NCBI GenBank assembly: GCA_963726745.1
Contig: CAVSDR010000003.1
Span: 800,001 to 864,000, forward strand
Direction of reading: 5' to 3'
Origin: an uncultured Verrucomicrobiae bacterium
GTDB lineage: Bacteria; Verrucomicrobiota; Verrucomicrobiia; Chthoniobacterales; UBA10450
Length of the DNA: 64,000 nt
Part shown: positions 1 to 54,833 of the stretch, piece after piece
Layout of the letters: each line of letters opens with the position of its first letter
How positions within the stretch are numbered: position 1 is the stretch's first letter
The notes under the pieces: model-generated
Databases searched by the model: none
What the model saw: the letters and a program-made list of their open reading frames with translations, nothing else
Told to the model about the DNA's origin: nothing
Translations under genes and position numbers: made by a program

Positions 1-297
1 AGCTGGAACGCGTCGACGCGGAGCAATCGCCTCCGCTTCCTCGGCGACGCGGGCGAGATGCTCCTGGCCGATGGCGTGCTCCAATTAGCCGACGAGACGC
101 AAATTTACCCAGCGCTTTCCGCGGGCTCGCATCACCCGGAATGGTTCGCGGCGATGCTGCCGGAGGTGCTCGCGGCTTTTCGGGAGCCGGCGCTTGCACA
201 CGCGAGCTTCGAGGAAGCGGCTGCCTGCCTCTCGTTAGTCCAGCGGGCGTACGCGACCGCAGATTGGCGGAGCGAAGCGCTTGCGCTTACGCCGTAG
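1..297 (+). CDS. 3' end of a gene entering from the left edge; possibly the C-terminus of a Gfo/Idh/MocA-type oxidoreductase
   Basis: Frame 1 is open from base 1 (SWNASTRSNRLRFLGDAGEML...) to TAG at 295-297. The family guess rests on weak resemblance only. Confidence 0.45.
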   Translation, partial: SWNASTRSNRLRFLGDAGEMLLADGVLQLADETQIYPALSAGSHHPEWFAAMLPEVLAAFREPALAHASFEEAAACLSLVQRAYATADWRSEALALTP

Positions 298-1609
298 CCA
301 CGCGCGCGAGGCGCTGCTTCGGCAGGAAAGTGTCGGCAATGATGTTGAGCGCTTCGTCGAGGTCGGCGCGCGAATGGTTCGCGGTCACGCAGGCGCGGAA
401 GCAGATGCCTTCCTGCGGCACTGCGGGATAATCCACCGGCGCAACCCAGAGACCGCGGCGGCGCAGCTCGTGGCCGAGTTGATACATGCGCGCGCGGTCG
501 CCCACGATCAGCGGCATGATGTAAGTGGTCGAGGCGCCGGTGTTGATCCCCATGGCGTTGACCTGCGCACGGAAATAGTCGGCATTTTCCCAAAGGCGCT
601 GGCGCAGCTGCGGCTCGCGGTTGGCGATCTTGAGCGCGGTCAAAATGGCGGCAATGACCACCGGCGGGAGCGCGCAAGAGTAGACGTAGGAATGCGCGTA
701 GAGCCGGAGGTAATCGAGCGTCTCGCGCGGGCCGGCGACGAAACCGCCAAGCGCGCCGAAGGCTTTCGAAAAGGTGCCGTAGATCAGCGGAATGCGATCG
801 CCGAGGCCGAAGTGCTCGGCCGCGCCGCGACCGGTGGGGCCGCAGGCGAGCATCGAGTGCGCTTCGTCGATGAAGACGCTCGCGCCATGCGTGTCGGCCA
901 CGTCGAGCAGCTCCTGAAGATTTCCGAAATCGCCATCCATCGAGTAGATGCCCTCGACGATCACGAGCTGGCGCTTGCCTTTGCGGCGCTGGAGCGCGGC
1001 GTCGAGCGAAGCGGCGTCGTTGTGCTCGAAGCGCTCCATCCGGCAACGCGAAAGGACGGCGCCATCGCGCGAACTCAAGTGCGAGCGATTATCCATCACC
1101 GCGACGTCGGTCTTGCGGAGCAATCCGGAGATCGTGCCGAGCGCGCCGCCGAATCCGCTATTGAACAGAATCGCGTCGTCGCGTCCGAGAAATTGGGCGA
1201 TCGCGCTCTCGAGCTCGCGATGGAGATCGGTCATCCCGGAAAGCGTGGGCGAGCCGCAGGCGCCGACGCCATATTTAGCCAGCGCCTCGTTCGCCGCGGC
1301 GATGACCTCGGGGTGATTCGCAAGGCCGAGGTAATTGTAGGAGCAAAGGTTGATCACCGGCTGCTCTTCGCCCTCGTAACGGATGGTAGTGCGGGCGTCG
1401 GCGCTGCCGAGCATGGCCGGCTCGTAGAGGGCGGCTTCCCACGCGCCGGCCTGGCGCCATGCGGTGAAGCCGGCGGGCGGAATGAGCGGGTCGCTGCTCT
1501 CGCCGACGACGAAATCACCCAAGCTCAGGGAGGAATCAAATCCGTCTGGCGACGGTGAGTCCTCTCGTTTGCGCACGTGCACTGAGTCAGGATTGGGACA
1601 AATCTGCAT
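287..1609 (-). CDS. PLP-dependent alpha-oxoamine synthase family protein (BioF/Kbl/serine palmitoyltransferase-like)
   Basis: Motifs NLCSYNYLGL, VEGIYSMDGD, DEAHS and GTFSKAFG (PLP lysine). ATG at 1609 chosen as start. Confidence 0.9.
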   Translation of the reverse strand: MQICPNPDSVHVRKREDSPSPDGFDSSLSLGDFVVGESSDPLIPPAGFTAWRQAGAWEAALYEPAMLGSADARTTIRYEGEEQPVINLCSYNYLGLANHPEVIAAANEALAKYGVGACGSPTLSGMTDLHRELESAIAQFLGRDDAILFNSGFGGALGTISGLLRKTDVAVMDNRSHLSSRDGAVLSRCRMERFEHNDAASLDAALQRRKGKRQLVIVEGIYSMDGDFGNLQELLDVADTHGASVFIDEAHSMLACGPTGRGAAEHFGLGDRIPLIYGTFSKAFGALGGFVAGPRETLDYLRLYAHSYVYSCALPPVVIAAILTALKIANREPQLRQRLWENADYFRAQVNAMGINTGASTTYIMPLIVGDRARMYQLGHELRRRGLWVAPVDYPAVPQEGICFRACVTANHSRADLDEALNIIADTFLPKQRLARVATA

Positions 1610-1778
1610 GGGAATCAACGCAATATCTCAGGGAAGTTCTCCCGGACGCCCGATGCCTGGCGGGAGAGCGCGACCCTAAGGGACGCGTCTGGCTCGCGCA
1701 TGTCTTTTTTCCGGAAGCCGGCGAGGCGAGCGCCGGGAGCAATCCGTGTCTCCGAAGCGCGCAGACCGCGCGAGCGGC

Positions 1779-2378
1779 CTAGGCCGAGGGCGCCGCGCTG
1801 ATCTCGTAGCGAATCGGCTTGAAGCGATAGTTGTTCGACATTTCCGCCGAGCAAGCGGTGAGGCCGACGATCAAGTCCATCTCCGCGCGCAGAGTAATGC
1901 TGTCGCCAGCTTTGGATTTCGGCGGGAGAATCGAAAGCGTCCCAGTCGTCGGATCGACCTCGACGTTCATGAAAAGGTTTAACGTGGTCGGGATGGCGTC
2001 GGGCGCGATCCCGAAGGGCTCGAGGTTGCGCACGAGATTCTCGAAGCAACTCGGATGATAGGCGTCGTTCTGATAAATAATTTCGAAGGTCTCCGGGCTG
2101 CAAGGCGTGAGGAGAAAATCGTGCCGGCCGACGGTGTCGTCGAGGATGGTGAACATCGGCCGGCTGCGATTGGAATAAAGCAGGTGGCCTTTGGTCAGGT
2201 AAATCGTGTTCGCGTAGTCGATGCTGCGACCGGAAGAGAGCCATTCCGCGCGATCCGCCTGGTTAAACGCGGTCAAGTCGGCGACCTGCTCGCCCTCGGG
2301 ATCGATCACGCGCAGGATTTGGCCGCGAGCCAACGTGAACGCGCCGCCGGTTTGCGGCGCCAGGTGATGCGAGGTCAT
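1779..2378 (-). CDS. Urea carboxylase-associated family protein (DUF1989)
   Basis: LRVIDPEGEQVADL, HDFLLTPCS, HPSCFENL, LNLFMNV, LRAEMDLIVGLTACSA. ATG at 2378 lies just after the upstream stop. Confidence 0.88.
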   Translation of the reverse strand: MTSHHLAPQTGGAFTLARGQILRVIDPEGEQVADLTAFNQADRAEWLSSGRSIDYANTIYLTKGHLLYSNRSRPMFTILDDTVGRHDFLLTPCSPETFEIIYQNDAYHPSCFENLVRNLEPFGIAPDAIPTTLNLFMNVEVDPTTGTLSILPPKSKAGDSITLRAEMDLIVGLTACSAEMSNNYRFKPIRYEISAAPSA

Positions 2379-2382
2379 GAAG

Positions 2383-3105
2383 CTAGTGCGCGAATGGGCA
2401 GCGCGCCGGTGCAGAGTTGGCGCTGGCCGCCTCGACGTGGAATGGCGCCTGCCAATCCTCCGACACCTGCCGTCCGGAGTATTGCCGGGCCTCGGAGCGT
2501 TCGCCGAAGTTGCTGAGCATGGGGTTGAAGCTTCCCTGCAAGGCCACGTCGCGCGAGCGAATTGCCTTCTGCATCCGCTCCCATTTTCCTTCGCGCCGCA
2601 GCCGCTCGAATTGCTCATGCGGATTGAAGACCAGGGCCGGGAACGGGAACTGGCGCGCAAAGCGCGAGCTCCCTGGATGCAAGCCCACGATGTAAAGCGC
2701 AACGCCGGCAAAGCCGAAGGAGAAAAATGGATCGGCTGGATCGGTCGCCGCCGGCCAGGGATCGGTCGCCGCGTCGATGCGATGGAGCTCGCGCAGCTGC
2801 TTCCAGAGAAGCCCCTCAAATTCCTCCTCGGTGCTTTGTCGCGGTTCGCGAAACAGGGCCACGAAAGTGGCAAAGCTATCACCGCTCCGCTCCCCTTGCG
2901 CGAAGGCGGCGAGCGCCGGCGCGAGCTGCGCCGCGGCGACAGACGATCCCAGTTCCTCGCACACCGCCACGCTGACTGCGCCAGAGTTTAGCGCCGCGTG
3001 CGCGCCGAGGCAGGGGAAGCCGGCGTCGCCGATAAAGGCAAGGAATTCCTCCCGCAACGCTTCTTCGGAAAGCTCGTCATTTTCAGCCAAAATCTTCGCA
3101 CGCAT
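2383..3105 (-). CDS. YqcI/YcgG family protein (DcsA/GntA-like heme-dependent guanidino N-hydroxylase family)
   Basis: FPCLGA, FFSFGFAG, GLHPGSSRFAR, LVFNPHEQFERLR, SEARQYSGR. Confidence 0.85.
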   Translation of the reverse strand: MRAKILAENDELSEEALREEFLAFIGDAGFPCLGAHAALNSGAVSVAVCEELGSSVAAAQLAPALAAFAQGERSGDSFATFVALFREPRQSTEEEFEGLLWKQLRELHRIDAATDPWPAATDPADPFFSFGFAGVALYIVGLHPGSSRFARQFPFPALVFNPHEQFERLRREGKWERMQKAIRSRDVALQGSFNPMLSNFGERSEARQYSGRQVSEDWQAPFHVEAASANSAPARCPFAH

Positions 3106-3231
3106 TTCACTGATGAACGCCCTATGGCCGATTCCCGGATGCGCGCTGCATTCGGGATTAGGAAAAGTCCTAGCTGCGAATCCGCTTCGTCCCAGACCCG
3201 TTGCGCGGCGCGGTGAAGCGAATCGGAGACG

Positions 3232-4242
3232 ATGGCGCCCGGTTGCAGCTACCTCCTGCCGATTCGGCGGACGACTTACTCCGCGCCGGAGACGGAGGAG
3301 CTGCGCGCTTACTTTCTATCGCTCGCACCCACCGGTTGCGAACTTCTGGTGATCGATGGTTCGCCGGACGCCGTTTTTCAGCAACACGCGCAGGCATGGG
3401 GAAAAATTTGCCGGCATCTTCCGGTGGAGCGCCGCTTCGGTTTTCGGAATGACAAGGTCAACGGCGTGCACACCGGCGTGGCCGCGGCACAAGGCGACAA
3501 GATCATCCTGGCCGATGACGACATTCGCTACACGCCGGACGAGATCGCGGCGGTGCTGGCGTTGCTCGATCGATTCGAAGTCGTGCGCCCGCAAAATTTC
3601 CTCCAGCCGCTTCCGTGGTGGGGCAAAACGGAAGCCGCGCGCATGCTCGTGAATCGCGCCACGCTCCGCACCGCCGACTATCCTGGCACCTGCGCCTTCC
3701 GCCGCGCGACCATGCTCGCGCACGGCGAGTACGACGGCGATGTCCTTTTCGATAACGAAGAGATTCTGCGGAACTTCGCGGCGCAAGGTTGTCGGATAAC
3801 TTACGAGACCGACCTCTTCGTGCGGAAGCGCCCACCGCATTTCCGCAAATGGCTCGAGCAACGTCCGCGGCAGGCTTACGAAGACTTCGGCCTGCGCGGA
3901 AAAACGGCGCTGTTTCTGGCGCTTCCCTTTGCCGTGATCCTGCCGGCTATTTGCTTCGGCTGGGCAGGCGCCGGTCGTTCCGTGGCGCTGCTCGCGATCG
4001 TCGCAATCCTCGTCGCCGAAGTCGGACGCCGACGGGGCCGCGCGGCCGAGTTCTTCCCGTTCCGCGTCTCGTTCTTCGCGCCGCTTTGGATCACCGAGCG
4101 CAGCCTGAGCACTTATCTCGCGCTCTACTGGTTCTTCCGGCATGGAGGCTACCCCTTCGGCGATCGCTTCCTTTCGCGAGGCGTCGGGCGCGCCTGGAAA
4201 ATCGGTGGCCGCCTGGCCGCGGCACAGGTCCGGCCGCGCTAA
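3232..4242 (+). CDS. GT-A fold glycosyltransferase (family 2/21-like) with C-terminal membrane segments
   Basis: LLVIDGS, DKVNGV, ILADDDIRY (DxD), QRPRQAY, hydrophobic C-terminus. Confidence 0.8.
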   Translation: MAPGCSYLLPIRRTTYSAPETEELRAYFLSLAPTGCELLVIDGSPDAVFQQHAQAWGKICRHLPVERRFGFRNDKVNGVHTGVAAAQGDKIILADDDIRYTPDEIAAVLALLDRFEVVRPQNFLQPLPWWGKTEAARMLVNRATLRTADYPGTCAFRRATMLAHGEYDGDVLFDNEEILRNFAAQGCRITYETDLFVRKRPPHFRKWLEQRPRQAYEDFGLRGKTALFLALPFAVILPAICFGWAGAGRSVALLAIVAILVAEVGRRRGRAAEFFPFRVSFFAPLWITERSLSTYLALYWFFRHGGYPFGDRFLSRGVGRAWKIGGRLAAAQVRPR

Positions 4243-5541
4243 ACGAGGGCCGGGACCTTCTCGCTCACCGCTTCCGCTTCCCGGAGCCGGCACCACCAGC
4301 CGCTTTCGGCCAACGCCGGATGCTCAAAAGCTTCCCCGCGGCTTAGCGCCCGCAGCGCCTCGCCCAGGATCGTCGTCCGCACCTGACCGTCGCTCAGGTC
4401 AAAGACTCCGGCTTCATAGTGTTCGTTAGGCTGCGTCACCAGGCTGTCCCAATCGAAGGCGCCGAGAAGCGACCACGCTGTCAGCGCCCGCACTTCAATC
4501 CCCTCGGCCCGGGCCGTGGTTGCGGCTTCCCAGGCCGCCATCAACCAGCGCAGTTGTTCCTCCGGCGCCGCGGCCAAATGCACTTCTGTGAGCGCAATCG
4601 GCCGGCGATAACGCTCGTGCGCTTCGCGAATCGCCCGCTCGAATCCACAACCCACCTCCGCCGCTCGCACCGCCACTTCATCGGCGTAAACTTCAAAGCC
4701 ATTCCTGCCGTGCGTTCGCTCTTGGTAATTCTCGATCTGCTCGTCCAGAAACCGATCGCTGGTCACGTAGTGATTGATCCCGATGATGTCCGGCGGCGAC
4801 AGCTTGTCGGCTAACGAGTCCAACTCCGCCGCCGTGGCGCCGTGCGCGAGCAGATGCGCTCGCAGGGGATGGCCTGGCTGCACCCGGCCACTGAGTAAAT
4901 CCCATCCAAGCCAGCGGCGCTCGTTATTGAAATCCGCCTGGTAACGCAATCGCGGCGTGCTGAAGGTGCGCCCGAGATCGTCGGTCTGCACAAAGAATAG
5001 CCGACGAGTTCACCCGACGGATCGCCCTCATCGCCAGGTCGCTTCCGCGGGCTTGCTGGAGCAGGGCCCGCACGAAAGTCGCCTCGTCACGGCCGTGCGG
5101 AAACCAGTGTCCGTAAAGTCCGCAAAAGCGCGCGGTCGTTACAGGTTCGTTGATCGGCGTGTAGGCGTCGATCCATGGATAACGTTCCGCCACGCGCGCG
5201 GCAAAGGCGGCAAACTTTTCCGGAAACGCCGGGTCCACCAGGCTGGTGTAACGCGGCCCGCTTCCATGGTGCAGCAGGCCGGCAATCGGCCGCAGCCCAA
5301 GTTCCCGCAAGCGCGCGAGGCCAGCGTCCGTCCAGCGCCAGTCGCACTCCTCCGGGGAATCAGGAGCGATAGTTTCCCACAAGATGGGAAATCGCAGCCG
5401 CTGGAGCCCCAGCGCCGCAAAACGCCCGAGATCTTCCAGCGCGCGTTCCCAGTGGCCGGTGCGTTCCAGTTGGTTCGAGAAGCGGTTGCCGACCCGGTTG
5501 ATCGTGCACTCCGCTCCGCCCCAAATCTCCAGCGCGTCCAT
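4239..5541 (-). CDS. Glycoside hydrolase family 1-like protein, frameshifted near 4992
   Basis: IWGGAECTINR, GLLHHGSGP and TPINEP in ORF 4924-5541; GINHY, ALTEVH and WSLLGAFDW in ORF 4239-4991. Removing one T from ATTCTTTGTG joins them. Confidence 0.85.
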
Positions 5542-5571
5542 CGGGTTCTCCGCGTCTGCGCGGAAGCTTCG

Positions 5572-6783
5572 TTAGGCCGCAGTGATCTCGAGTGCGCGCT
5601 CATCCACGAGCACATCCTCAATGTGCTGCTCGAGCTGCTCGACGATCGATTCCCAGGAATTCTCCTCGGCCAGGGCGATCCCCCGCTCGATCCGCACGGC
5701 GTCGGGATGCGCCGCCGCCTGCGCGCACGCCCGGGTAAAGCTCGCATGATCCGGAGCCACCAGGACGACATCGCTAAATTGCCGCACCACGTCCTGCACC
5801 GGCGTGGAGACAATCGGACGGCCGGTGGCCATGTATTCCAGCGCCTTGGTCGGATTGATAAATCGGGTCGCTTCGTTCATCGCGAACGGCATCAGGCAGA
5901 CATCGAAGCCCCTGGCGTAGCTCGGCAGCTCGGCGTAATCGCGTCCGCCCAGCCAATGGAGATTGGCGCGTTGCGGGAAGCTTTGCGGGTCGACCTTGGT
6001 ATGCGGGCCCACCACGACCACGCTGCCCTTCGTCTCGTCGGCTAATTTGCCTAACAAGTCGTAATCCATCCGCTCATCGACCACCCCGATGTAGCCGAAA
6101 ACGGGCCCGGGGAGGCCTGCCAGGTCCGCCGGCAATTCCGTCAAGGGATCGCGCGCACGGCCGAAGTGATCGTGCTCCACCCCGCAACCGAAGGAATAGC
6201 AGTTTGGGTTCAGGACACGCTTGGCTTCCCAGATCTTCGGGCCGCCGGCAAAGACCACGTCCGCCAAAGCCAGCAACTCGCGTTCGCGGCGGACCAGTTC
6301 CGCCTGCGCGCCGCGGAAAAGCGAGAGCTCATCCATGCAATCGTAGACGATCGCGCGTTGCCCGAGGTGCCCGGCAAAAGCGGTCACCGCCATCGGATCG
6401 TAAAACCACTGCACCGGCGACCGGAAACTCTGCCCGAGCGGCCCAGCGAGCACTGCCTCGACCACGCGCCGGCGTTCGCTATCCACCCAGGCACCATCGC
6501 TCCAGCGCGCGGCCGGAATTTTTGTTTCCAGGACGACGACGTTTGGATAGTCGGCCACTTCACGGAGCACCGTCTCGGAATGCGTAACCTCAGTGGACGG
6601 CGTGGGACCCTCGACGAAAAGGACGCGATGCCGTTGCGATAAACGCGAATGAAACTGCTGCGGCCGCTGCCAGACCCAATCCCAACGCAGATGCGAGTGC
6701 ACGATGATTGGATAATCATTGAGCGCTTCCAGCTCCGTGCCCCATTGCTTCCCATCCCGCTGGCTAATTGATCCCGATATCAT
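5572..6783 (-). CDS. GT-B fold glycosyltransferase (GT4/TuaH-like)
   Basis: SHLRWDWVWQRPQQ, VYDCMDEL, GYIGVVDERMD, NPTKALEYMATGRPIVST. Confidence 0.88.
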   Translation of the reverse strand: MISGSISQRDGKQWGTELEALNDYPIIVHSHLRWDWVWQRPQQFHSRLSQRHRVLFVEGPTPSTEVTHSETVLREVADYPNVVVLETKIPAARWSDGAWVDSERRRVVEAVLAGPLGQSFRSPVQWFYDPMAVTAFAGHLGQRAIVYDCMDELSLFRGAQAELVRRERELLALADVVFAGGPKIWEAKRVLNPNCYSFGCGVEHDHFGRARDPLTELPADLAGLPGPVFGYIGVVDERMDYDLLGKLADETKGSVVVVGPHTKVDPQSFPQRANLHWLGGRDYAELPSYARGFDVCLMPFAMNEATRFINPTKALEYMATGRPIVSTPVQDVVRQFSDVVLVAPDHASFTRACAQAAAHPDAVRIERGIALAEENSWESIVEQLEQHIEDVLVDERALEITAA

Positions 6784-6910
6784 GTGCGGGATGATTCGTT
6801 GCGGCCTGCCGATTTGGTTTCCGATATTTCGGTAAAATCAGGCACTACGACTTTTCCTGACGAAGCGCGCGCCCTGCGGTGGAATCACGCCCGCGCAAGG
6901 CGGGAAAGAG

Positions 6911-6986
6911 TGGCGACCCTAACGGGATTCGAACCCGTGTTACCGCCGTGAAAGGGCGGTGTCCTAGGCCACTGGACGATAGGGTC
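6911..6986 (-). tRNA. tRNA-Glu (anticodon TTC), CCA end encoded
   Basis: Minus strand reads GACCCTATCGTCCAGTGGCCTAGGACACCGCCCTTTCACGGCGGTAACACGGGTTCGAATCCCGTTAGGGTCGCCA. Acceptor stem GACCCTA/TAGGGTC, T-loop GTTCGAATC, 76 nt. Confidence 0.98.
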
Positions 6987-7039
6987 AGGAAGCGGGCCAA
7001 TATCAGAAGCCCGGTCTGCGGGCGCAAGTTATTTGCGGC

Positions 7040-8351
7040 TCAAAGCGCGGTCCGCCTTGGCCGCGGCAACGCGAGCAATAACTCCGCGGTCCGCACGGTC
7101 GCGCCGTGATGCGCCGCCAGGACCGCCTTGGCCTCGTGCACGAGCCCGGCGCAGCGCGCGGGATCGAGTAATAACGCCTCCAAAATGCCGGCTAATTCCC
7201 CGGCGGCGGCGATCTGCACCGCGCCCCGGCGTTCCACCAGGGTGCGCGAAAGCACGGCAAAATTTTCCATGTGCGGGCCGAAGACCACCGGGCGCCCGGC
7301 GAGAATCGGCTCCACCGGATTCTGCCCGCCTGTGGTCGTTAGGCTCTTGCCCACGAAGACGACCGTAGCCACGCCATACCAAGCGCGCAGCTCACCCGTG
7401 GTATCGAGCAGGAGAGCGTCAAAGCCGGCCGCCGCTGCTTCCCCGGCCAGCTCGCTCCGGCGCACCCAGCGCAGGCCTAACGAGTCCAGCATCCGCGCGA
7501 TCTCGGTGGTGCGCTCGACGTGACGCGGGGCGATGATCAAGAAGGCGTCGGCTAAGCACGCGCGCAGCTCCAGGAAGGCGCGCGCGAGGATTTCCTCCTC
7601 GCCATCGTGCGTGCTCCCGCCGAGGACGATCGGGCGCGTGCGGGCGATGCCGGCCGTTTCCAGAAGCGCGCGCGGGCCGGCGGAATCAGGCGCGGCTTCG
7701 CTTGGGTCGTATTTAATGCTGCCGACTTCGTGAATCGTCTCCGGGCGCACGCCGATGGCTTGCCAGCGCTCCGGGTCGCCGCGCTCCTGTACGCAGACGA
7801 GGTCGAGCCGGCGAAAGATCGGGCGCACGAAAGCGCGGAACTTCCGGAAGCGGCGCTCGGAACGTGGCGAGAGCCGGGCGTTCACGAGTGCCAGTGGAAT
7901 CCCGCGCGCCTCGGCCAACGCGGCCAGGTTCGGCCAGACTTCCGCTTCCACGAGGACGATCCGCTCCGGACGCAGGACGGCGAACGCGCGGCGCATGATC
8001 GGCCAAAAATCGAGCGCGTTGTAGAGCACCAGCATCCACTCTGGCGCCTCACGCTTCGCGAAGGCGTAGCCGGTGGTCGTGGTCGTGGTCAGGGCGCAGC
8101 GGAAATCCGGATCGAGCTCGCGCAATTTAGCCGACAACTTGAGCGCGATCGCGACCTCGCCCACGCTGACCGCGTGCATCCAGGTGTGCGGACGCGCCGC
8201 CGAGCCGCGCCCGCACTTCCTCGGAGTAAACGCCGAAACGCTGCCCAAAATTTTCCCGGTAACCGCCCCGGCGCCGCATCTTCAGGAAGTAGCCCGGGAG
8301 AAAGAAGAGCAGCCCGAGCGGAAAGAGCAGGTTGTAAAGCAGCCGGATCAT
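7040..8351 (-). CDS. waaA: 3-deoxy-D-manno-octulosonic acid (Kdo) transferase, frameshifted near 8200
   Basis: N-terminal anchor MIRLLYNLLFPLG in ORF 8127-8351; WMHAVSVGE, EAEVWPN, GSTHDGEE, APRHVER, DTTGEL and GGQNPVEP in ORF 7040-8248. Confidence 0.93.
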
Positions 8352-8354
8352 TCG

Positions 8355-8909
8355 TTAGGCCGGGACGAGGAAGAGCACCTCGGTGGCGCCGTAGGTTTTT
8401 CGGCGAAGCACGCTCCAAAGCGCGGATTCGAACAGCTCTTCCTCCGGCCGTTTCTCGAGCACGAACAGGCCGTCGGGCGCGAGCAACTTCGGCAGCATTT
8501 CGTGCTCCAGAAGTTGCCGGGTAAATTCGCCGCCGGCCTTGGTCTTCTCATACGGAGGATCGGCGAAAATGAGGTCGAAGATTTCGCTCGCGGCCGGCCC
8601 GCGATTGAGAAAACCGAAGACTTCCTGCTGCGTGATCCGGCCGCGGAGTTTCGTGCGCACGAAGTTTTGCTCGATCGCCTGGACGGCGGCGCGGTTCTCC
8701 TCCACGAACAAGGCCGAGGCCGCGCCGCGGCTGAGCGCCTCGATCCCAAGCGCGCCGGTGCCGGCGAAGAGATCGAGCACGCGCGCGCCGAGCACGCGGT
8801 CGGCCAGGCTGGAAAAGATCGCGGCCTTCACGCGATCCATCGTCGGGCGCACGTCGGTCTCCGGCACGGCCAGGCGGAGGCCGCCGGCGCTTCCGGCGAT
8901 CACCCTCAT
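8355..8909 (-). CDS. rsmD: 16S rRNA m2G966 methyltransferase
   Basis: MRVIAG, RPTMDRVK, VLDLFAGTGALGIEALSRGA, IFADPPY. Confidence 0.95.
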   Translation of the reverse strand: MRVIAGSAGGLRLAVPETDVRPTMDRVKAAIFSSLADRVLGARVLDLFAGTGALGIEALSRGAASALFVEENRAAVQAIEQNFVRTKLRGRITQQEVFGFLNRGPAASEIFDLIFADPPYEKTKAGGEFTRQLLEHEMLPKLLAPDGLFVLEKRPEEELFESALWSVLRRKTYGATEVLFLVPA

Positions 8910-10414: not shown

Positions 10415-10472
10415 GCGGCAAGGTTACGCAGCGGCTCCCCCATGAAAAGATGAAAGCCCGCCCGCGCCGCCC

Positions 10473-12226: not shown

Positions 12227-12257
12227 GGGGCTGGAGGCGCGGGGGTGAAAGTGCCGG

Positions 12258-12647: not shown

Positions 12648-12678
12648 AAGTGCCGCAAAATCAGCGATGGGTATCGCG

Positions 12679-14161: not shown

Positions 14162-14172
14162 CGAGTCGTCTC

Positions 14173-44080: not shown

Positions 44081-44150
44081 GGGAGAATTTTCCTTTCGCC
44101 CGCGACCCGGCAGCATGCCGGAAAAGCCCCTCTCCTGGCAAGCTCGCTGA

Positions 44151-44447
44151 CTAAAACGCGAGCGCGCCGCGGAGGTAAAACGCGAGGAACGCCAGGAGGA
44201 GGCCGATCGCCGCCAGCCACCAGATCCAGCGCAGGCCGTGCGGCCGCGGCGATTTGCCGCCAAACTCGCGCGCAACGAACTCCTCGTAATCGAAATCGTC
44301 GTCGGCCTCGGGCAGGTCGAGCGCGTCCACGTGCGCTGCATCTTCGCGCCAGCCGGAGCGTTCATCCGCGCCGCACTCCGGGCAGGCGAGGGCGCGCGGC
44401 GGGACCTCTTCGCCGCAGACTGGACAAATTTCGGGCGCGCGGCTCAT
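44151..44447 (-). CDS. Small zinc-ribbon membrane protein
   Basis: CPVC...CPEC, acidic linker, C-terminal TM helix; overlaps the DUF3052 stop. Confidence 0.8.
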   Translation of the reverse strand: MSRAPEICPVCGEEVPPRALACPECGADERSGWREDAAHVDALDLPEADDDFDYEEFVAREFGGKSPRPHGLRWIWWLAAIGLLLAFLAFYLRGALAF

Positions 44448-44852
44448 CGCAATTCGCGCCGGACGACAAATTTCAAAGCCGACCAAGTGGCGTCGACCGC
44501 ACAGACTTTGATGTCGACCAACCCCAGCGGGAGAATGATCTCGCGCAGCAAATCCTCGGTGAGGTCGGTAGCCACGCCGGACGTTTTTTTCGGCCAGGAA
44601 ATCCAGAGCGCCGCGTCCGGCGCGATCTCTGGGCGCAAAGCCACGAGCCGCTTTTCGAGCGCCGCGCGCGAAGTCACGAAACAGGTGAACCAGCTGGCTA
44701 TTTTTCCCGGGGCGCGCCGACCAGGCGATCGTCTGCTCGGCCGGCAACTCGAGGAGCGCGCGGTAATTCTCCGGCGGATGCTCGACCGCGACGCGCAGGC
44801 CATCGCGGTAACCGAGTTTCTTCCAGAGCGGAGTCTGCGAGTAGCCGGCCAT
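44444..44852 (-). CDS. DUF3052 family protein, frameshifted near 44680
   Basis: MAGYSQTPLWKKLG, then after one extra T: WISWPKKTSGVATDL, GLVDIKVCAVD, WSALK. Confidence 0.85.
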
Positions 44853-44920
44853 AGGTGCGGGTTGCGAGGGTTGCCGAACGATTGGAGCATGACCTCGCCT
44901 ACGCCGGCCACTTCTATTTT

Positions 44921-47014: not shown

Positions 47015-47056
47015 TTGCCCGGTCGCAAATGAGATGATATTTTGTCTCAAATGAAA
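47015..47056 (+). promoter_or_regulatory. Putative sigma70 promoter and tandem operators of the toxin-antitoxin operon
   Basis: TTGCCC-N17-TATTTT; near-palindromes GTCGCAAATGAGA (47022) and GTCTCAAATGAAA (47044). Confidence 0.6.
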
Positions 47057-47446
47057 GCCGGCAGCCGCAAGCTCCTCACGCCGCAGCAATTGGTTCAAGT
47101 GGTCCAGAAAGGTCTGGATTTGGGCGAATTGGAAAAACTGCGCGCCGAGCTCGGCTTGCCGCTCGATCAACTGGCGGAAAAACTCGGGATCGCCCGCGCC
47201 ACCTTGCATCGGCGGAAAGCAGCCGGCCGCCTCGGGCTTGATGAGTCGGACAAGGTGCTGCGTTTCGCGCGTCTGTTTCACCAGGCGGAGAAGGTCCTCG
47301 GCGGCGCGGAGGAAGCGCGGCAATGGCTGGCCGCTCCGCAGTATGGCCTCGGCGGCGCGGTCCCGCTGGATTACGCCCGCACCGAAGTGGGCGCGCGCGA
47401 AGTGGAGAACCTGCTCGGCGCGATCGAGCACAGCATCTATTACTAA
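47051..47446 (+). CDS. Xre/MbcA/ParS-type antitoxin
   Basis: HTH (LGIARATLHRRK), ESDKVLR, ARQWL, LGGAVPL, GAREVENLL. Confidence 0.92.
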   Translation: MKAGSRKLLTPQQLVQVVQKGLDLGELEKLRAELGLPLDQLAEKLGIARATLHRRKAAGRLGLDESDKVLRFARLFHQAEKVLGGAEEARQWLAAPQYGLGGAVPLDYARTEVGAREVENLLGAIEHSIYY

Positions 47447-47912
47447 ATGCCGGCCGGCTGGCGGATCGTGAAGGCGCCATACGCGGCCGTCGCTTTCAGC
47501 GGCGAAGGCGCACGCCGCTGGCGTGGACGCTGGCACTCGCGCGGGACCGCGGTGGTTTACCTGAGCGAGCACCAATCGCTCGCCGCGCTCGAGCTTTTCG
47601 TGCACCTCCGGCCGCTCCCGGTGCGGGGCGATTACGTGCTCGCGGGCGCGGAGTGGGACGAGGACTTCATGGAGAGCTTGAGCGCGCGGCAATTGCCAGC
47701 GGATTGGCGCCTGCTGCCGCCGGGACCGGCTACGGCTGCGATCGGCGATCGCTGGGTCCGCGAAGCCCGCTCCGCGGTGCTGCGCGTGCCGAGCGCGATC
47801 ATCCCGACGGAGTCGAACTTCCTCTTCAATCCCGCGCACCCCGACTTTCGCCGCATTCGCCTGCGCAAGCCGGCACCGTTCGCCTTCGATCCCGCGGCTG
47901 CTGCCGGCGTGA
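47447..47912 (+). CDS. RES-domain toxin (NAD+-targeting family); true stop probably at 47910-47912 after removing one extra C
   Basis: WRIV, GRWH, VYLSE..LAALE, VPSAI, NFLFNPAH. Deleting one C at 47891-47893 restores FDPRLL and a TGA. Confidence 0.9.
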
Positions 47913-47966
47913 ACCGCGGCGGAGATTGTCTCGCGCCGCGTGAACGGATAGAACGCGCACAGCCCA

Positions 47967-50071
47967 ATGAATTGCTCGCTCCGGATCGTTGGTCTGCTCG
48001 CGCTCATCTCGCTGGCTGTTTCCGCAAACGCCGCGCCGGAGGCGACGCTTGTCCCTTTCCGGTTAGAGGCGCCGCAGGCACAGGCGGTTTTCCTCGCGGG
48101 CGAATTCAATCATTGGAGCACGAGCGCCACCCCGATGCAGCGCGACGGCCAGGGCCGCTGGAGCGTGAGCGTGCCCCTGCTTGAGGGGCAGCACAGCTAC
48201 AAGTTTCTGATCGACGGAAAGTGGGAGATCGATCCGATGAATCCCGAGGTCACGACCGATGGCTTCGGCGGGAAAAACTCGGTCGTGAAGGTGATCGACG
48301 ATCGGATCGATCCGGTAGTCGAGGAGAAGGACGCGGTCGGCGCAGAAGCGGCGCGGCTGCTCGGGCAAGGCGAATTCGCAGCGCTCGAAAAACGCGCGCA
48401 GGAATATCGCGAAACCAAGGCGTGCTATTCCGATGGCCTCTGGATGTTGACCAATTTCTACGACGGCTTGGGCGCGGAAAACGAAATGCGCGACCATGCG
48501 GATTGGCAGCCTTGGTTTGAAAAAATCGAGCGCTGGGGCCGCGAGTTTCCCGAATCGATCACGCAGCCGGTGGTATTGGCAAACGGCTGGCGCAAGTATG
48601 CCGAAGAGGCGCGGAGCGTGGCGCCGCCGGGCGATGAAAAGGCGCGCGCCACTGGCCAGGGAACGCCTCGCAAAAGCGCGCACCATCCTTAAGGCGGCCG
48701 AGAATTTGCCAGCGCGTTGTCCGGTCTGGTATTCGGCCATGCAACAGCTCGCGCTCGCGCAGGGCTGGGAGCGCGAGGAATTCGAAAAGCTGCTGGCCGC
48801 GGCTGCGGGCGCGGAGCCGACCTACTATTCCTATTACGCGAATGCGGCGCTCTATTTTCAGGGCCAGGGGCGCGGCGCGTGGGAGAAAGTGGCGGAAGAG
48901 GCAGCCGAGAAATACGATCCCGCGGAAGGCATGGCCGCGTATGCGCGCACCGTTTGGTTCATGGAGCCGCGCTTCGGGAACCTCTTCGCGGAATCGGTCG
49001 TCGCCTGGCCGAAGCTGCGCCAGGGCTTTCTCGAGATCGAGAAGCGCTACCCGAATTCGCGTTGGAATTTAAATGCCTTTTGCCGCTTTGCGGTCCGCGC
49101 GGGCGACCGGCAAACAGCCAGCGAGCTCTTCGCTCGCATCGGCGCGAAGGGCGACCCGGATTGGGGCGGCTACGCGAGCTATGAGATGGCGCGGCTCTGG
49201 GCCGACCCGGCGACGCCTTCCTGGCGGATCGCTCCCATCCGCACGCTCAAGCCGAAATCGATCGTGCACGCCCTCGCCTTCTCGCCGGATGGCGGTGGTG
49301 TTTTCCGCCGATGGCAAGATGCTCGCGGCTGGGGCCGGTCAAACCTGGCGACCGACGGAGCCGGGCGTGGCCAAGGTCTGGGAAGTCTCGAGCAAACAAG
49401 AGATCGCCGCGGGCAAACCCACCGGCGTGGTCTGGAAAGTCGCCTTCACCCCGGATGGCAAAACCCTCGCGCTCTCCGGCGGGCAATGGGAAAGCCAGGC
49501 CGAGTCGAGCCTGCTCGACCTGGCGACGAAACAACTCCGCGCGCTTCCCTGGACTACGGGGCACGATCACGTGCTCAAGGGCGTGGCCATCTCGCCGGAT
49601 GGGGAGTCGCTGGTGACGGATTGTTATCAATCGATCACGGTCTGGAGTTTGACCGAGAACCGCGTTGTCTTCGAGCAGCGGAAGGTGCTGAAGGATTTCG
49701 TCCTAAAGCTCGCCTTCGCGCCCGACGGCAAAACGCTCGTGACCTGCGGCGCACCGATGCGCGGGCACAATGATGCCGAGCCGGGCGAGCTCACGCTCTG
49801 GGACACGACAACATGGAAACCGCGCAGCCCGCGCGCGCAAACCGATGCCGGCGGTCTGGTGGCGGTGGCTTATTCCGCTGATGGAAAGTGGATCGCGGGC
49901 GGCGGCTACGATCGTGCGGTCCACGTCTGGGACGCAGCGACCTTGGAGTCGAAAGTGATCTACCTCGGACACGAGGACATGATTGATGCGGTCGCCTTCT
50001 CGCCCGATGGCGCCATCCTGGCCTCCGGCGGCTACGACGGCACGATCAAGCTCTGGCGTTTCCCTCGTTAG
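47967..50071 (+). CDS. Secreted multidomain protein: CBM48/AMPK-beta-like domain, DUF4034-like helical domain and WD40 repeats; two frame breaks (about 48655 and about 49295)
   Basis: VFLAGEFNHW...YKFLIDGKWEIDP (CBM48); helical region in ORF 48496; FSPDG/GGYDG WD40 repeats in ORF 49073. Confidence 0.7.
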
Positions 50072-50183
50072 GCCGAAATTTAGCCTACTCGTTGTCCGCC
50101 GGGGGAGGAAGTGCTTGGCCGGCACGCCTGTTGACCAATCAAGCGTTGAGAGATTGGGCGATTGCGCCAAAATTACCCTCCCG

Positions 50184-51638
50184 ATGCAGCCCACCATCCT
50201 GATCGTCGATGACGAGAAGCACACCCGCGATGGCATGCGGCGTTTGCTCGAGGATGAATATGACGTCTATGTCGCGGGCGACATCGCCGGGGCGATGGAT
50301 GTGCTCGAGCGCGACCCAGTCGATGTGCTCATTACCGACCTGCGCCTCGCGGGCGACGACGGGATGAACTTGATCGAGCGCGCGCTGAAGATGGGCCGCC
50401 CGCCGATTTGCATCATGATGACGGCCTACGGCTCGGTCGACACCGCAGTCGAGGCGATGAAGCGCGGGGCCTACGATTTCGTGACCAAGCCGTTGAACCT
50501 CGACAAGCTCGAGATTCTGATCGCGCGCGCGCTCGCTGGACGGAAGATGGAGCAGGAAAATCGCTCCCTCCGCCAGCAGGTGGACGAGCGGTTCGGCCTG
50601 GAAAACATCATCGGCGAATCGCCCGCGCTGCACGAAGTGCTTACCACCATCCGGCAGGTCGCGCCCTCGAATGCAAACGTGCTGCTCGATGGCGAGAGCG
50701 GCACCGGCAAGGAACTGGCGGCGCACGCGATCCACAATCTCAGCCGGCGAAGCAAGGCCAAGTTCGTCGCGGTGCACTGCGCCGCGCTCTCGCCGACGCT
50801 GCTGGAGAGCGAGCTTTTCGGGCACGAGCGCGGCGCTTTCACCGGGGCGCACGAGCGCCGCCTGGGCCGCTTCGAGCAGGCCAACGGCGGCACCATTTTC
50901 CTCGATGAGATCGGCGAGATCGACCCGAGCACGCAGGTGAAATTGCTCCGCGTGATCAGCGAAGAGCGCTCCTTCGAACGCGTGGGCGGGAACCAATTAT
51001 TGAAAGCCGATGTGCGCCTGGTCGCGGCCACCAACAAGGATCTCGCGAAGCTCGTGAGCGAGGGAAAATTCCGCGAGGACCTCTTCTTTCGGCTGAACGT
51101 GGTCCACATCACGATGCCGCCGTTGCGCGACCGGAAAGAGGACATCCCGCTGCTGGTGCGCGGCTTCCTGAAACACTTTTGCCGGGTGAACGATAAGCCG
51201 CTGCTCGACCTGACGAGCGACGCCATGAGCTTGCTGCTGAACCACAATTGGCCCGGAAATGTGCGTGAGCTCCGGACCGCGATCGAGCACGGCGTGGTCA
51301 TGGCCAACGGCCCCAAGATCACCGTGCGCGAGCTGCCCATGAGCGTGCGCCAGAACGCGACCGCGAACTTGCCCGCCGGGATCACGCCGGCGCGCGCCTG
51401 GAGCGAGCGCCCGAGCCCGCTCGACCTCCACGAGACCGAGCGCCGCCTGATCATGCAGGCCCTGGCCACGACCAAGGGGAACATCACCGCCGCGGCAAAA
51501 AAGCTCGGGATTAGCCGGCGCACTCTGCACCGAAAGATCAATGAAATGAACGCCGAAAAGGACGCGGCCACGGCCGCGGAAAATCCCGCAGCGACGGGCG
51601 CCGCGGACGAAGAGATTGCTCGACTTCCCGGGGAATGA
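50184..51638 (+). CDS. Sigma-54-dependent response regulator (NtrC/AtoC family)
   Basis: Receiver (VDDE, TDL, TAYG, KP), GESGTGKE, ESELFGHERGAFTGA, C-terminal Fis-type HTH. Confidence 0.96.
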   Translation: MQPTILIVDDEKHTRDGMRRLLEDEYDVYVAGDIAGAMDVLERDPVDVLITDLRLAGDDGMNLIERALKMGRPPICIMMTAYGSVDTAVEAMKRGAYDFVTKPLNLDKLEILIARALAGRKMEQENRSLRQQVDERFGLENIIGESPALHEVLTTIRQVAPSNANVLLDGESGTGKELAAHAIHNLSRRSKAKFVAVHCAALSPTLLESELFGHERGAFTGAHERRLGRFEQANGGTIFLDEIGEIDPSTQVKLLRVISEERSFERVGGNQLLKADVRLVAATNKDLAKLVSEGKFREDLFFRLNVVHITMPPLRDRKEDIPLLVRGFLKHFCRVNDKPLLDLTSDAMSLLLNHNWPGNVRELRTAIEHGVVMANGPKITVRELPMSVRQNATANLPAGITPARAWSERPSPLDLHETERRLIMQALATTKGNITAAAKKLGISRRTLHRKINEMNAEKDAATAAENPAATGAADEEIARLPGE

Positions 51639-51682
51639 CATCGACAAATCCCGCGTGCTCATCCTGCCGTTAATCTCTCGTC

Positions 51683-53419
51683 ATGCCTGGTCCCGCTGAC
51701 TTCATCCAACGTTCGGTGCACGCCCTCGAGGCGGGTGGTCTTGCGGTCTGGGTGCGACGCGGCCTGGCCTTCCTCGTGATCGTCTTGCTGGCTCTTTTTT
51801 ATCTGATCCACGAGTTCCGCGGCCTGGCCACTTCGCAGGCGATGGACCAGGCGCAGATCGCGCGCAATCTTGCCAACGGCGAAGGCTTCCACACCGATCT
51901 CATCCGCCCGCTGGCCATCGGCCAGTTGCAGCGCGCCAACAAGGATGTCGCCCGGCGCATCTGGTCGGATACCTACAACGCGCCGCTCCCGCCGCTGGTC
52001 AACGCGGTCGCGCTTCGCCCGCTCAAGAGCCATTGGAAAATGTCGCCCGCGGAGGTGGTTTACTCCGGCGACAAGATCATCGCATTTTTCTCGATCTGCT
52101 TCTTCCTCGCCTCGGTCGCGGTCCTCTTTTTCGTCGCCCGCCGGCTCTTCGACGACCGGCTCGCGATCCTCGCCTGCGCGCTCATTCTCCTCTGCGATAT
52201 GATGTGGCAATACTCGCTCTCGGGTTTGCCGCAGATGCTGCTCCTCTTCCTTTTTAACAGCACGCTCTACGTGCTCGTGCGCGCGGTCCAGGCGCAGGCC
52301 GCCGGCGGCCGTGTGGGCCTTTGGCTGGCCGCGGTCGGCGCTGGTTTCGGGCTGCTGGCGCTCGCGCACGCGCTCACCATCTGGATCTTTTTCGCAGCGC
52401 TGGTCTACGCAGTGTTCTACTTCAAGCCCCGCGGCTGGGCGGCGCTGATCATCCTCGGAGTGTTCCTGCTTTTCTATGCGCCTTGGCTCTTGCGCAATTT
52501 CATCCTCACCGGCAATCCCGCGGGCGTGGCCTGGTATTCCGTCCTCGATGGAATCAACCAATCCGAGGCCGGCTACATGCGGCATCTCTCGATTGATTTC
52601 TCCACGATCACGCCCGGCCTGTTTAAGAATAAATGGACCGGCAATCTGCGCACGCAGCTCGGCGGTGTCTTTGGCTACCTCGGCTGGAGCGTGGCCGCGC
52701 TTTCCTTCTTCATTAGCCTGCTCCATCTCTTCAAGCGCCGGGAGACGGCGGCCATGCGCTGGCTGGTCCTGGCGATGTGGGCCGGGGCTGCTCTCGGGAT
52801 GGTGGTCTACGGCGTACACGAGGAACAAGGCGTGGCCGCGAACCAGCTTTACCTGCTTTTTGTCCCGATCATGACCTGCTACGGCCTGGCTTATCTCCTG
52901 GTGCAATGGAACCGCCTGGAGATTTCGATGAAGCTCGCGCGCATCGGCTTCATTACCCTGCTCTTTCTCCTCTGCGCGCTGCCGATGTTGCTGAACATGT
53001 TCCTGCCGCAGACGAACCGGCCTGGGGTGCATTGGCCGCCTTACATCCCGCCGTTTATTTCCGTGCTGAACGACTGGATGCGCCCCGAGGAAGTGATCGC
53101 TTCCGACATGCCGTGGGCGGTCTCGTGGTATGCCGATCGCCGCTCGATCTGGCTTCCGGAAACCGTTCCCGCATTCACTGAGCTGCACGATTACGGCGTC
53201 GTCGGTGCGCCGCTTAACGGCCTCTACCTTACGCCCGTCAGCGGCAGCCAGAATACCCTCAGCGACATCCTCAAGGGCGAGTATCGCGACTGGGCTGCGG
53301 TCATTTTGCGGAGTATCGATATCTCGAAGTTCCCGCTGAAGTGGGCTACGCTCCTCGGGCTGGAAGGCGAGTGCGTTTTCTTCGCCGATGTCGACCGCCA
53401 GCGCCTGCCTGCGCCCTAA
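51683..53419 (+). CDS. Multi-pass GT-C (PMT/ArnT-like) glycosyltransferase
   Basis: MDQAQIARNL, PLPP, many TM helices, PWLLRN. Confidence 0.7.
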   Translation: MPGPADFIQRSVHALEAGGLAVWVRRGLAFLVIVLLALFYLIHEFRGLATSQAMDQAQIARNLANGEGFHTDLIRPLAIGQLQRANKDVARRIWSDTYNAPLPPLVNAVALRPLKSHWKMSPAEVVYSGDKIIAFFSICFFLASVAVLFFVARRLFDDRLAILACALILLCDMMWQYSLSGLPQMLLLFLFNSTLYVLVRAVQAQAAGGRVGLWLAAVGAGFGLLALAHALTIWIFFAALVYAVFYFKPRGWAALIILGVFLLFYAPWLLRNFILTGNPAGVAWYSVLDGINQSEAGYMRHLSIDFSTITPGLFKNKWTGNLRTQLGGVFGYLGWSVAALSFFISLLHLFKRRETAAMRWLVLAMWAGAALGMVVYGVHEEQGVAANQLYLLFVPIMTCYGLAYLLVQWNRLEISMKLARIGFITLLFLLCALPMLLNMFLPQTNRPGVHWPPYIPPFISVLNDWMRPEEVIASDMPWAVSWYADRRSIWLPETVPAFTELHDYGVVGAPLNGLYLTPVSGSQNTLSDILKGEYRDWAAVILRSIDISKFPLKWATLLGLEGECVFFADVDRQRLPAP

Positions 53420-53444
53420 CGACCGCTCTCCCCTTCCCTTTGCG

Positions 53445-54833
53445 GTGACCACTCAAGCGAACAAACTTTTCGGGACCGATGGCGTGCGCGGCGTGGCCAA
53501 CGTCGAGCCGGTCACCGCCGAAACCGCGCTCAAGCTCGGACGCGCCGCCGCGCACGTTTTTACCCAGCTCAATCCGCGCACCCGGCCGGCCGATGCGCGG
53601 CCGAAGATCGTCCTCGGGAAAGACACGCGCCTCTCCGGCTACATGCTGGAGAACGCGCTCGTGGCCGGGATCACTTCGCTGGGCGTGGACGTGCTCGTGA
53701 TCGGGCCGCTGCCTACGCCGGGCGTGGCCTACATCACTCGTTCGTTGCGCGCCGACGCCGGCATTGTCCTCTCGGCCTCGCACAATTCCTATGAGGACAA
53801 CGGGATCAAATTCTTCCGGCACGACGGCTACAAATTAGACGACAAGATCGAGCACGAGATCGAGCGGCTGGTCTTCACCGGCGAGATCGACAACGTCCGC
53901 CCGACCGCGGGCAACATTGGCCGCGCCACCCGGATCGACGACGCGCTCGGACGTTACGTGGAATTCGCCAAGGCCAGCTTCCCGCGCGGGATGTCGCTCG
54001 AGAAAATGCGGATCGCGGTCGATGTGGCCAATGGCGCCGGCTACAAATCGACCCCGTGCATTCTGCGCGAACTCGGCGCGGACGTGCTCGTCTTTCATAA
54101 CGCGCCGAACGGGACGAACATCAACGCCCATTGCGGCAGCACCCACCCGGAGGAAATCCAGCGGCTGGTGCGCGAGACCGGGGCGCACGTTGGCCTAACG
54201 AATGATGGCGATGCCGACCGCGTGCTCCTGTGCGACGAGAACGGCGAGACCGTGGATGGCGACGAAATCCTGGCGATTGCCGCGATCGATCTCCTGCGCT
54301 CCGGGCAACTGCGCGAAAACACCCTCGTGGCCACGGTCATGAGCAACTTCGGCCTGGATGAGGCGCTCGAATCCGCCGGCGGCAAAGTTTTGCGCACGAA
54401 AGTGGGCGATCGCTACGTGATCGAGGAAATGGTCCGGCGCGACCTCAACCTCGGCGGCGAACAAAGCGGCCACATGATCTTCCGCGACTACAGCACGACC
54501 GGCGACGGCATTGTCAGCGGGCTGCAAATCCTGCGGATCATGAAGGCGACCGGGAAACCTTTGAGCGAACTCAAGCGCTGCCTGCAAAAGTATCCGCAGG
54601 CGCAGCGCAATCTTCGCGTCAAAGCGAAGCCTCCATTGGAGGAAATGCCCGCGGTCTTGCAGCTGGTGAGCGCGGCCGAACGCGAGCTGAACGGCAAAGG
54701 CCGCGTGCTCCTGCGCTACTCCGGCACGGAGCCGAAGATCCGTTTGCTGATCGAGGGCCGCGAGCGGACGCAAATCGACCAGCAGGCCGACCGGATCGCG
54801 GAAGCGATCGAGCGCGCGATCGGCGCGTCCTAA
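53445..54833 (+). CDS. glmM: Phosphoglucosamine mutase
   Basis: FGTDGVRG, GKDTRLSGYM, SASHN, DGDADR, GGEQSGH, RYSGTEP. Confidence 0.96.
   Translation: MTTQANKLFGTDGVRGVANVEPVTAETALKLGRAAAHVFTQLNPRTRPADARPKIVLGKDTRLSGYMLENALVAGITSLGVDVLVIGPLPTPGVAYITRSLRADAGIVLSASHNSYEDNGIKFFRHDGYKLDDKIEHEIERLVFTGEIDNVRPTAGNIGRATRIDDALGRYVEFAKASFPRGMSLEKMRIAVDVANGAGYKSTPCILRELGADVLVFHNAPNGTNINAHCGSTHPEEIQRLVRETGAHVGLTNDGDADRVLLCDENGETVDGDEILAIAAIDLLRSGQLRENTLVATVMSNFGLDEALESAGGKVLRTKVGDRYVIEEMVRRDLNLGGEQSGHMIFRDYSTTGDGIVSGLQILRIMKATGKPLSELKRCLQKYPQAQRNLRVKAKPPLEEMPAVLQLVSAAERELNGKGRVLLRYSGTEPKIRLLIEGRERTQIDQQADRIAEAIERAIGAS

Follow-up and report, generated by a model that had tools for sequence, protein, structure and literature searches.

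Why some bacteria fill their genes with many copies of one short word is open for the highly iterated palindrome HIP1 (GCGATCGC) of cyanobacteria and debated for uptake sequences. Chi and the FtsK-orienting polar sequences (KOPS) are short, asymmetric, over-represented words that are skewed by strand. The DNA uptake sequences (DUS) of Neisseriaceae and the uptake signal sequences (USS) of Pasteurellaceae are among the closest parallels to the word studied here, TCGTTAG (CTAACGA on the opposite strand). This asymmetric word recurs in a 64,000-nt stretch of DNA from an uncultured Verrucomicrobiae bacterium (the window; contig CAVSDR010000003.1, positions 800,001 to 864,000) and throughout its source genome, G000 (lineage Chthoniobacterales; 3.41 Mb, 7 contigs, 86% coding). 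The word is real, is found across the family of G000 and in two phyla, and resembles an uptake sequence or HIP1 in its genome evolution. From sequence comparison and structure prediction, we consider it moderately probable that TCGTTAG is the putative binding site of a small cytoplasmic AP2-like protein, which is probably a sequence-guided nucleoid protein. No description of the word or of its AP2-like protein was found in the literature searched, which covered few subscription journals.

Like TCGTTAG, DUS and USS are non-palindromic, number about 2000 copies, lie on both strands and occupy all permissive frames. They also share with it enriched tripeptides (PMC2817400), sites that appear conserved within slightly more variable surroundings (PMC2397512), a strict inner core (PMC7811141), a lower frequency in foreign DNA and lineage dialects. 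TCGTTAG differs from them as an unrelated word that uses rare codons, forms no inverted pairs and keeps the same core in two phyla, and whose candidate reader is cytoplasmic and has the word on its own promoter. HIP1 is likewise iterated in coding and non-coding DNA, gained by substitution and over-evenly spaced (PMC13756078, 10.1101/2024.09.10.611283). It is tied to known methylases, whereas TCGTTAG is no palindrome, has a graded 16-bp motif and is tied to an AP2-like protein.

The window contains 37 copies of the word; shuffled sequences had a mean of 2.92 and a maximum of 8, and none of 100 reached 37. An earlier note on this DNA had placed 33 of the 37 on coding sequence, and independent gene calls made in this analysis, from which all frames are read, reproduce that overlap and every frame class exactly. 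Fifteen copies read TCG-TTA-GNN: SLV at 232..238 (+, TCG-TTA-GTC); SLA at 4811..4817 (-, TCG-TTA-GCC), 12596..12602 (-) and 41503..41509 (-); SLD at 38714..38720 (-); and SLG at 7477..7483 (-, in WaaA), 12097..12103 (-), 19181..19187 (-), 20232..20238 (-), 25647..25653 (+, in a PhrB-like gene), 27079..27085 (-) and 28390..28396 (-), both in DUF885, 41926..41932 (-), 42115..42121 (-) and 43618..43624 (-). Four read GTT-AGN, namely TTC-GTT-AGT (FVS) at 11799..11805 (-), TTC-GTT-AGG (FVR) at 25567..25573 (+, the PhrB-like gene), TTC-GTT-AGA (FVR) at 26647..26653 (+) and CTC-GTT-AGC (LVS) at 39115..39121 (-). Read antisense, five give P/A-N-E/D: PNE at 4423..4429 (+, CCT-AAC-GAA), 31318..31324 (-) and 46305..46311 (-), AND at 14718..14724 (+, GCT-AAC-GAC) and PND at 27810..27816 (+, in DUF885). 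Three more antisense copies use CTA-ACG: LTT at 7336..7342 (+, CTA-ACG-ACC, in WaaA) and LTN at 34355..34361 (-, CTA-ACG-AAT) and 54195..54201 (-). The word falls on a TAA stop at 5569..5575 (+), 8352..8358 (+), 14158..14164 (-) and 53416..53422 (-), and on a CGT-TAG stop at 37629..37635 (+) and 50065..50071 (+). Copies at 17068..17074 (-), 21446..21452 (-), 32138..32144 (-) and 62914..62920 (-) lie outside called genes. The last of these, intergenic, lies beyond the range of 231..54202 given earlier; sites cited as family motifs were right to one or two bases (25567 FVR, 7336 LTT, 27079 SLG, 34355 LTN), and Pfam bears out the PhrB-like, WaaA and DUF885 host genes (DPRP, Glycos_transf_N and DUF885).

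Across G000 there are 2025 copies of TCGTTAG against 136-194 expected from Markov models, and TCGTTAGGC occurs 631 and 681 times on the two strands. The word lies inside genes (1576 copies), outside them (305) and on gene edges (144), with equal density within and between genes. Its full motif is W-S-S-A-C-TCGTTAG-G-C-R-R, with flank preferences identical in every frame and in non-coding DNA, and the core CGTTAGG is common to the family of G000 and to Gemmatimonadaceae. Most single-base variants of the core are no commoner than expected. TTGTTAG alone is tolerated (23-fold), with flanks better than those of the main word (preceding C in 93 of 121 copies vs 820 of 1312). Graded flanks and such compensation are compatible with a protein footprint.

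The pressure acts on the DNA and not on the peptide, as had been suggested from the window: density is the same in and between genes, flanks are independent of frame and codon bias is overridden. In G000 the word is carried by 487 of 755 SLG peptides (0.85% expected), 183 of 247 PNE (4.6% expected) and 131 of 398 LTS (0.2% expected), so that the genome-wide codon comparison proposed earlier comes out far above codon-usage expectation. The main frame holds 667 words vs 27 in per-gene synonymous shuffles, and 33 of 34 SLG preceded by His have the word. For SLG, the one-step neighbours are empty (TCG-TTG 0, TCG-CTA 0, vs TCG-TTA 487), while other Ser-Leu pairs use TCG-TTG 75, TCG-CTA 8 and TCG-TTA 24 times. 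The earlier description in terms of codons understates the effect, since amino acids are altered too. PNE (247 vs 96 expected) and SLG (755 vs 458) are the third and fourth most over-represented tripeptides, after two Pro/Thr repeats, and their reversed forms are near expectation (ENP 134/134, GLS 415/398). Among orthologs, SLG occurs 49 times in G000 vs 20 in the word-poor genome G003. At 54 of 116 G000 sites the G147 ortholog has a peptide that cannot encode the word, and the same is true of 51 of 78 sites in G003, which indicates that amino acids change as well as codons. G000 and G147, which differ at 53% of four-fold sites, have 48 word sites in common vs 33.8 expected at identical tripeptides (z 6), an excess of which flank context could yield part via independent gain. 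Synonymous identity is 0.80 in the core vs 0.60 in the flanks, to which independent gain may also add.

In contrast to Chi and KOPS, TCGTTAG has no strand bias. On a 1-Mb contig with negative GC skew in 10 of 11 bins the two orientations number 305 and 316, and 100-kb bins of G000 or G420 show no skew. Close pairs are scarce in G000, with 57 gaps below 200 bp where redistribution of the words over permissive sites gives 120. Site occupancy is about 0.6 in general but 0.26-0.49 when another copy, in whatever orientation, lies less than 200 bp away. Inverted DUS pairs serve as terminators. No inverted-pair pattern is seen here, as the 20 gaps below 50 bp (about 60 expected) have no orientation excess. 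The longest word-free gap in G000 is 25 kb, at 58% GC.

Within the family the word is widespread and its density variable. Eighteen of 18 congeners carry 138-2291 copies of TCGTTAGGC vs 1-19 in 12 genomes of other families, and across 201 family genomes CTCGTTAGGC ranges from 2 to 479 per Mb, the top value resting on G001, an unpublished genome, with 456 the next highest. Density varies about 30-fold inside one genus in which the candidate gene is constantly present. The tallies include the unpublished genomes G001, G008, G032, G036, G043, G162, G196, G383, G423 and G479. A scan of all genomes for a spaced word pair gave, among the 80 matches listed, 67 in Chthoniobacterales or Verrucomicrobia, 12 in Gemmatimonadota and one in Proteobacteria, the last in a genome with 10 copies only. 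The dialect of Gemmatimonadaceae is CGTTAGGC, equally strict and unskewed; G322 has 3882 copies of TCGTTAGGC, and in a draw of 151 Gemmatimonadota genomes nine have at least 170 of CGTTAGGC.

This distribution leaves next to no room for an artefact of basecalling or assembly, which the earlier note had already argued against. The assembly does contain apparent indel errors, in WaaA and the ComEC tail. The word nevertheless recurs in independent assemblies: all 18 congeners and most of 200 family genomes show an excess of it, 12 other families stay close to background, and it is shared at orthologous sites and present in a second phylum. As to the errors themselves, a frameshift near 8200 splits WaaA in the window (8127-8351 and 7040-8248, both -), the first residues being in another frame, and the C-terminal ComEC tail (L001) is about 80 aa longer than in relatives; both are probably assembly indels.

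The candidate reader is encoded outside the window, at G000:C6:137354-137719 (-; L562). It has 121 aa, no hydrophobic leader and a net charge of +25, and comprises a 78-aa AP2-like domain and a 43-aa Lys/Ala tail (11 K and 12 A); its sequence pattern, judged by eye, is AP2-like. The predicted model (predicted local distance difference test score, pLDDT, 82) has strands at residues 13-17, 27-35 and 38-45 and a helix at 52-69, that is, a three-stranded sheet followed by a helix. The top structural matches (Z 5.2-7.5; remaining rows at most 4.8) include the AP2-DNA complex 6sy0_A (Z 6.4, root mean square deviation 4.6, 64 aligned) and two chains named AP2; the highest is 9hqv_Yn (Z 7.5, root mean square deviation 3.5, 64 aligned). 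Pfam AP2 is matched by 16 of 60 aligned relatives at E 0.01, and in the Atlas cluster of the protein AP2 is assigned to 10% of members (score 0.91). The predicted sheet and helix are shared with AP2 proteins such as Plasmodium SIP2 (6sy0) and the phage CasPR repressors, in which a bacterial-type AP2 domain helps to bind a motif within coding DNA (10.64898/2026.02.23.707548). Unlike these, the candidate is a stand-alone domain followed by a Lys/Ala tail; its gene is single-copy and present family-wide, and its putative sites number thousands vs 4 to about 100.

Two lines of evidence connect this gene to the word, (i) its promoter and (ii) co-occurrence. In 10 of 11 genomes the ATG is preceded, at a distance of 10-32 nt, by TCGTTAG, where about 0.12 of 11 would be expected, and two of these genomes have the word about once per 8 kb or less; the exception among the 11 is G137, with a degenerate promoter word. 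Such an upstream copy precedes 56 of 2918 G000 genes. Shortly upstream of the promoter word is an aligned TTGC / TAnnnT pair whose spacing is promoter-like, and 6 of the 11 loci have a further copy that coincides with the stop or closely follows it. The gene is in 11 of 16 chosen family genomes and was not found in the five near-zero ones or in any of 17 genomes of other families. A profile search places it in 171 of 201 family genomes and finds it in none of the 22 genomes of genus g19 and in no genome of g36 or g46, these being the three most consistently word-poor genera; 10 of the 30 family negatives are inferred from tallies. Median CTCGTTAGGC is 40 per Mb with the gene vs 12 without it, and more than 30 per Mb is found in 107 of 171 genomes with it vs 3 of 30 without.

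In Gemmatimonadota, AP2-like matches occur in 20 of the 151 genomes, 16 being single-domain with a basic tail and three two-domain (that of G470 judged from coverage only), with G380 not parsed. A tailed single-domain relative is present in all nine genomes with at least 170 CGTTAGGC, and 0 of 135 without it reach 170. GTTAGG stands upstream of 9 of 17 of these genes (14 copies vs 0.9 expected), and also of two further ones, in G322 and G323 (four and two copies). The proteins of the two phyla are homologous (hhalign probability 90%, E 1.7e-6) and form separate groups in a weak 80-column tree (approximately unbiased test, p-AU 0.07 for one clade). AP2-like proteins with two domains and a length of about 140 aa (L575, L576, L593, L602) occur in Gemmatimonadota and the word-poor g19, and are a possible source of the single-domain tailed form. 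They do not themselves track the word, being found in the word-poor G429, G436, G470 and two g19 genomes.

We propose that the protein would bind the word through its β-sheet, by analogy with AP2 proteins and CasPRs, while the Lys/Ala tail would grip adjacent DNA, and that it would repress its own gene via the copy at the transcription start. A bound site about every kilobase would have an advantage, or be shielded from loss, at positions where the encoded protein permits it, and near-matches would be converted and kept even if this brings in rare codons and alters some amino acids. Another site less than about 200 bp away would add little, so that saturation would be reached locally at about one site per 200-300 bp. 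The cell might gain chromosome organisation, a mark on its resident DNA or protection. We infer from these patterns that the protein binds the word directly, represses its own gene and acts in the nucleoid, and that binding drives the accumulation. More tentatively, and with slightly less than even confidence, we suggest that in two dominant soil lineages of different phyla an AP2-like domain bearing a histone-like tail was domesticated separately to serve as a sequence-guided chromatin protein, selection for sites having rewritten thousands of codons and some amino acids.

Several observations weigh against this proposal. The candidate was picked by eye from the small basic proteins of G000 after ComEC, IntI, HU and SWIB had failed, and the 16 and 17 genomes of the first comparison were chosen by word density. 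The G000 protein has no Pfam match (PF00847 included), no Foldseek match at E 0.001 and no significant PDB sequence match; Z below 8 may reflect a common arrangement of elements, and four of the five top structural matches are mitoribosome chains, which makes RNA binding possible. Its codon score, at the 8th percentile, is untypical of a very abundant protein, and a plain sigma-70 scan finds no promoter at the gene. The gene is not sufficient, as density stays at or below 30 copies per Mb in 64 of the 171 family genomes that encode it, and searches of the word-rich G057, G150 and G183 (70-91% complete) did not recover it. Among Gemmatimonadota, 7 of 16 genomes with the tailed gene are word-poor, no candidate gene was found in the word-rich G325, and four of the nine rich genomes (G355, G376, G452, G473) are rich relative to the phylum only, not to the reversed-word control. 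Co-occurrence statistics ignore kinship, so p-values overstate the association, and short-range exclusion is weaker in G147 (52 vs 72 gaps below 200 bp).

The uptake-like accumulation claimed earlier stands as a population pattern; uptake itself does not emerge as the best mechanism. In a true DNA uptake sequence, the bias of a surface receptor together with recombination would spread the word, the AP2-like protein being a bystander or having co-opted it. The enriched PNE and SLG, the apparently conserved sites within slightly more variable surroundings, the strict inner core and the orientation-blind saturation within about 200 bp would all fit. So would the scarcity of the word in the eighth of G000 genes with the lowest GC content at third codon positions (GC3; 0.38 copies per kb vs 0.52-0.61 in the others), low GC3 serving as a proxy for foreign origin. 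Competence genes are also present, with ComEC in 190 of 201 family genomes, DprA in 5 of 5 and 16 prepilin-type motifs in G000. However, ComEC is found in 12 of 12 word-poor families as well and is not common to both phyla, the ComEA-type domain is absent from the G000 nuclease fusion, about 1.5 Mb of Gemmatimonadaceae DNA yielded no shared receptor candidate, and uptake leaves the promoter copies on an AP2-like gene in two phyla unexplained. We regard this explanation as unlikely. As determinants, ComEC was rejected because it is present whatever the density and vertically inherited, and a ComEA-like protein because its architectures differ between the two phyla. Three family genomes encode a secreted SNase-like nuclease with a ComEA-type helix-hairpin-helix domain (L466, L467, L468); in the G000 nuclease (G000:C4:17230-17874) this domain is missing, with only a remnant elsewhere.

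Integrons offer another link. The attC/attI core has the consensus GTTRRRY, which GTTAGGC fits, and attC-like sites from this order have the word at their 3' end, as TCGTTAG-RY, in the word-poor G022 too. With IntI in 121 of 201 family genomes, integrase activity or selection for cassette capture might have given rise to the word. Unlike attC sites, the genome-wide word is without hairpins or arrays, has a narrower preference after GTTAG and is unrelated to the presence of IntI: G000 has no IntI above the cut-off and a single attC-like match in a pattern search, and density in genus g1 spans 14-433 per Mb in genomes that have IntI and 19-479 in those that lack it. An A follows GTTAG in 16 of 32 attC-like ends vs 4% and 8% of genome-wide copies, and CGTTAGAC is absent (0) from G420. 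The integron as driver is largely refuted, and we consider it very improbable; the two base preferences may still have a common origin. Two attI-like sites upstream of integron arrays (L044, L046) end in TTCTCG-TTAGG, which matches the attC spacer of the same clade. In the word-poor other-family genome G022, four TCGTTAGGC copies without attC-like context lie at a contig end (L051; G022:C2:639000-644206), possibly DNA transferred or misbinned from the word-rich family. The XerD arm of dif was also rejected, as the predicted dif sites of Gemmatimonas and three Verrucomicrobia are without the word (PMC3025954); no clear dif was found in G000.

There remains the proposition that a different factor, such as a methylase, a repair protein or another nucleoid protein, reads and creates or protects the word, as has been proposed for HIP1, with the AP2-like gene as one target. 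The absence of the one-step SLG neighbours is what a ratchet would produce, and the density range within one genus at constant gene presence would also be accounted for. A second word points the same way. TTAGCCRRC has 25 copies in the window (span 85..63640; 1.31 expected), one of which, at 4806-4814, overlaps the TCGTTAG copy at 4811, and its motif, A-W-T-TAGCC-RR-C-R-M-N-W-T-S, has AT-rich flanks and possibly an IHF-like spacing. It numbers 1139 copies in G000, 485 in G011, 354 in G015, at most 213 in the other 31 congeners and at most 299 in 120 genomes of the order; it is independent of the first word and does not exclude it. Since G000 has no AP2-like paralog, at least one further reader probably exists. 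Against such a factor, a 16-bp graded motif is a poor fit to a methylase, HU is single-copy, and SWIB also occurs in word-poor genomes; we judge this explanation improbable. HU and IHF were rejected with one gene each in 5 of 5 genomes, and the SWIB protein because, although present in 18 of 18 genomes of family f1 or word-rich Gemmatimonadota (four of the f1 genomes near zero), it is also in 12 of 26 word-poor ones. A BLAST comparison of G000 with about 1.5 Mb of Gemmatimonadaceae DNA, part of these genomes, revealed no DNA-binding protein convincingly common to both.

Binding by the AP2-like protein is the account that we favour. If it is correct, an iterated genome word with a cytoplasmic reader would belong to a class separate from uptake sequences, HIP1 and Chi, abundant soil bacteria would possess a sequence-guided chromosome protein not described before, and cytoplasmic readers would be worth seeking for other uptake-like words. 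The case combines a candidate for the reader with a likely operator on the gene of that candidate, a word density that varies over two orders of magnitude within a single family, and a counterpart in another phylum.

The word is also usable as a lineage marker for binning contigs and proviruses. Two proviruses with no assigned host, L080 (G317) and L082 (G318), have a host-like word density (25 copies in 25.5 kb and 22 in 42.7 kb, head and packaging genes included), both having been chosen as the densest of 80 loci. G317 has mostly G, not C, before TCGTTAG, which suggests that its host may use another dialect. Further viral scans gave no clearly word-rich contig beyond L205. A TCGTTAGT dialect, presumed for Acidobacteria, was not found, the 80 metagenome loci being tandem repeats and chance pairs; separately, a metagenomic 42-bp tandem array with internal inverted repeats (L380:2939-3490) contains CGTTAGT. 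Public sequencing runs matched at most 0.14 of the stretch's words and were uninformative on word sites.

Other features of G000 were noted in passing. GTAC (1322 vs 8476 expected) and CTAG (1922 vs 6755) are strongly avoided, hinting at a restriction or methylation site. The ends of two contigs (C1:500-12200 and C6:1022900-1034600) carry gene sets that are 97-100% identical, probably an assembly overlap or strain duplicate. In the window, an Rfam search found only a tRNA, and tandem near-duplicate 53-aa membrane peptides are encoded at 23724-23885 and 24199-24360 (both -).

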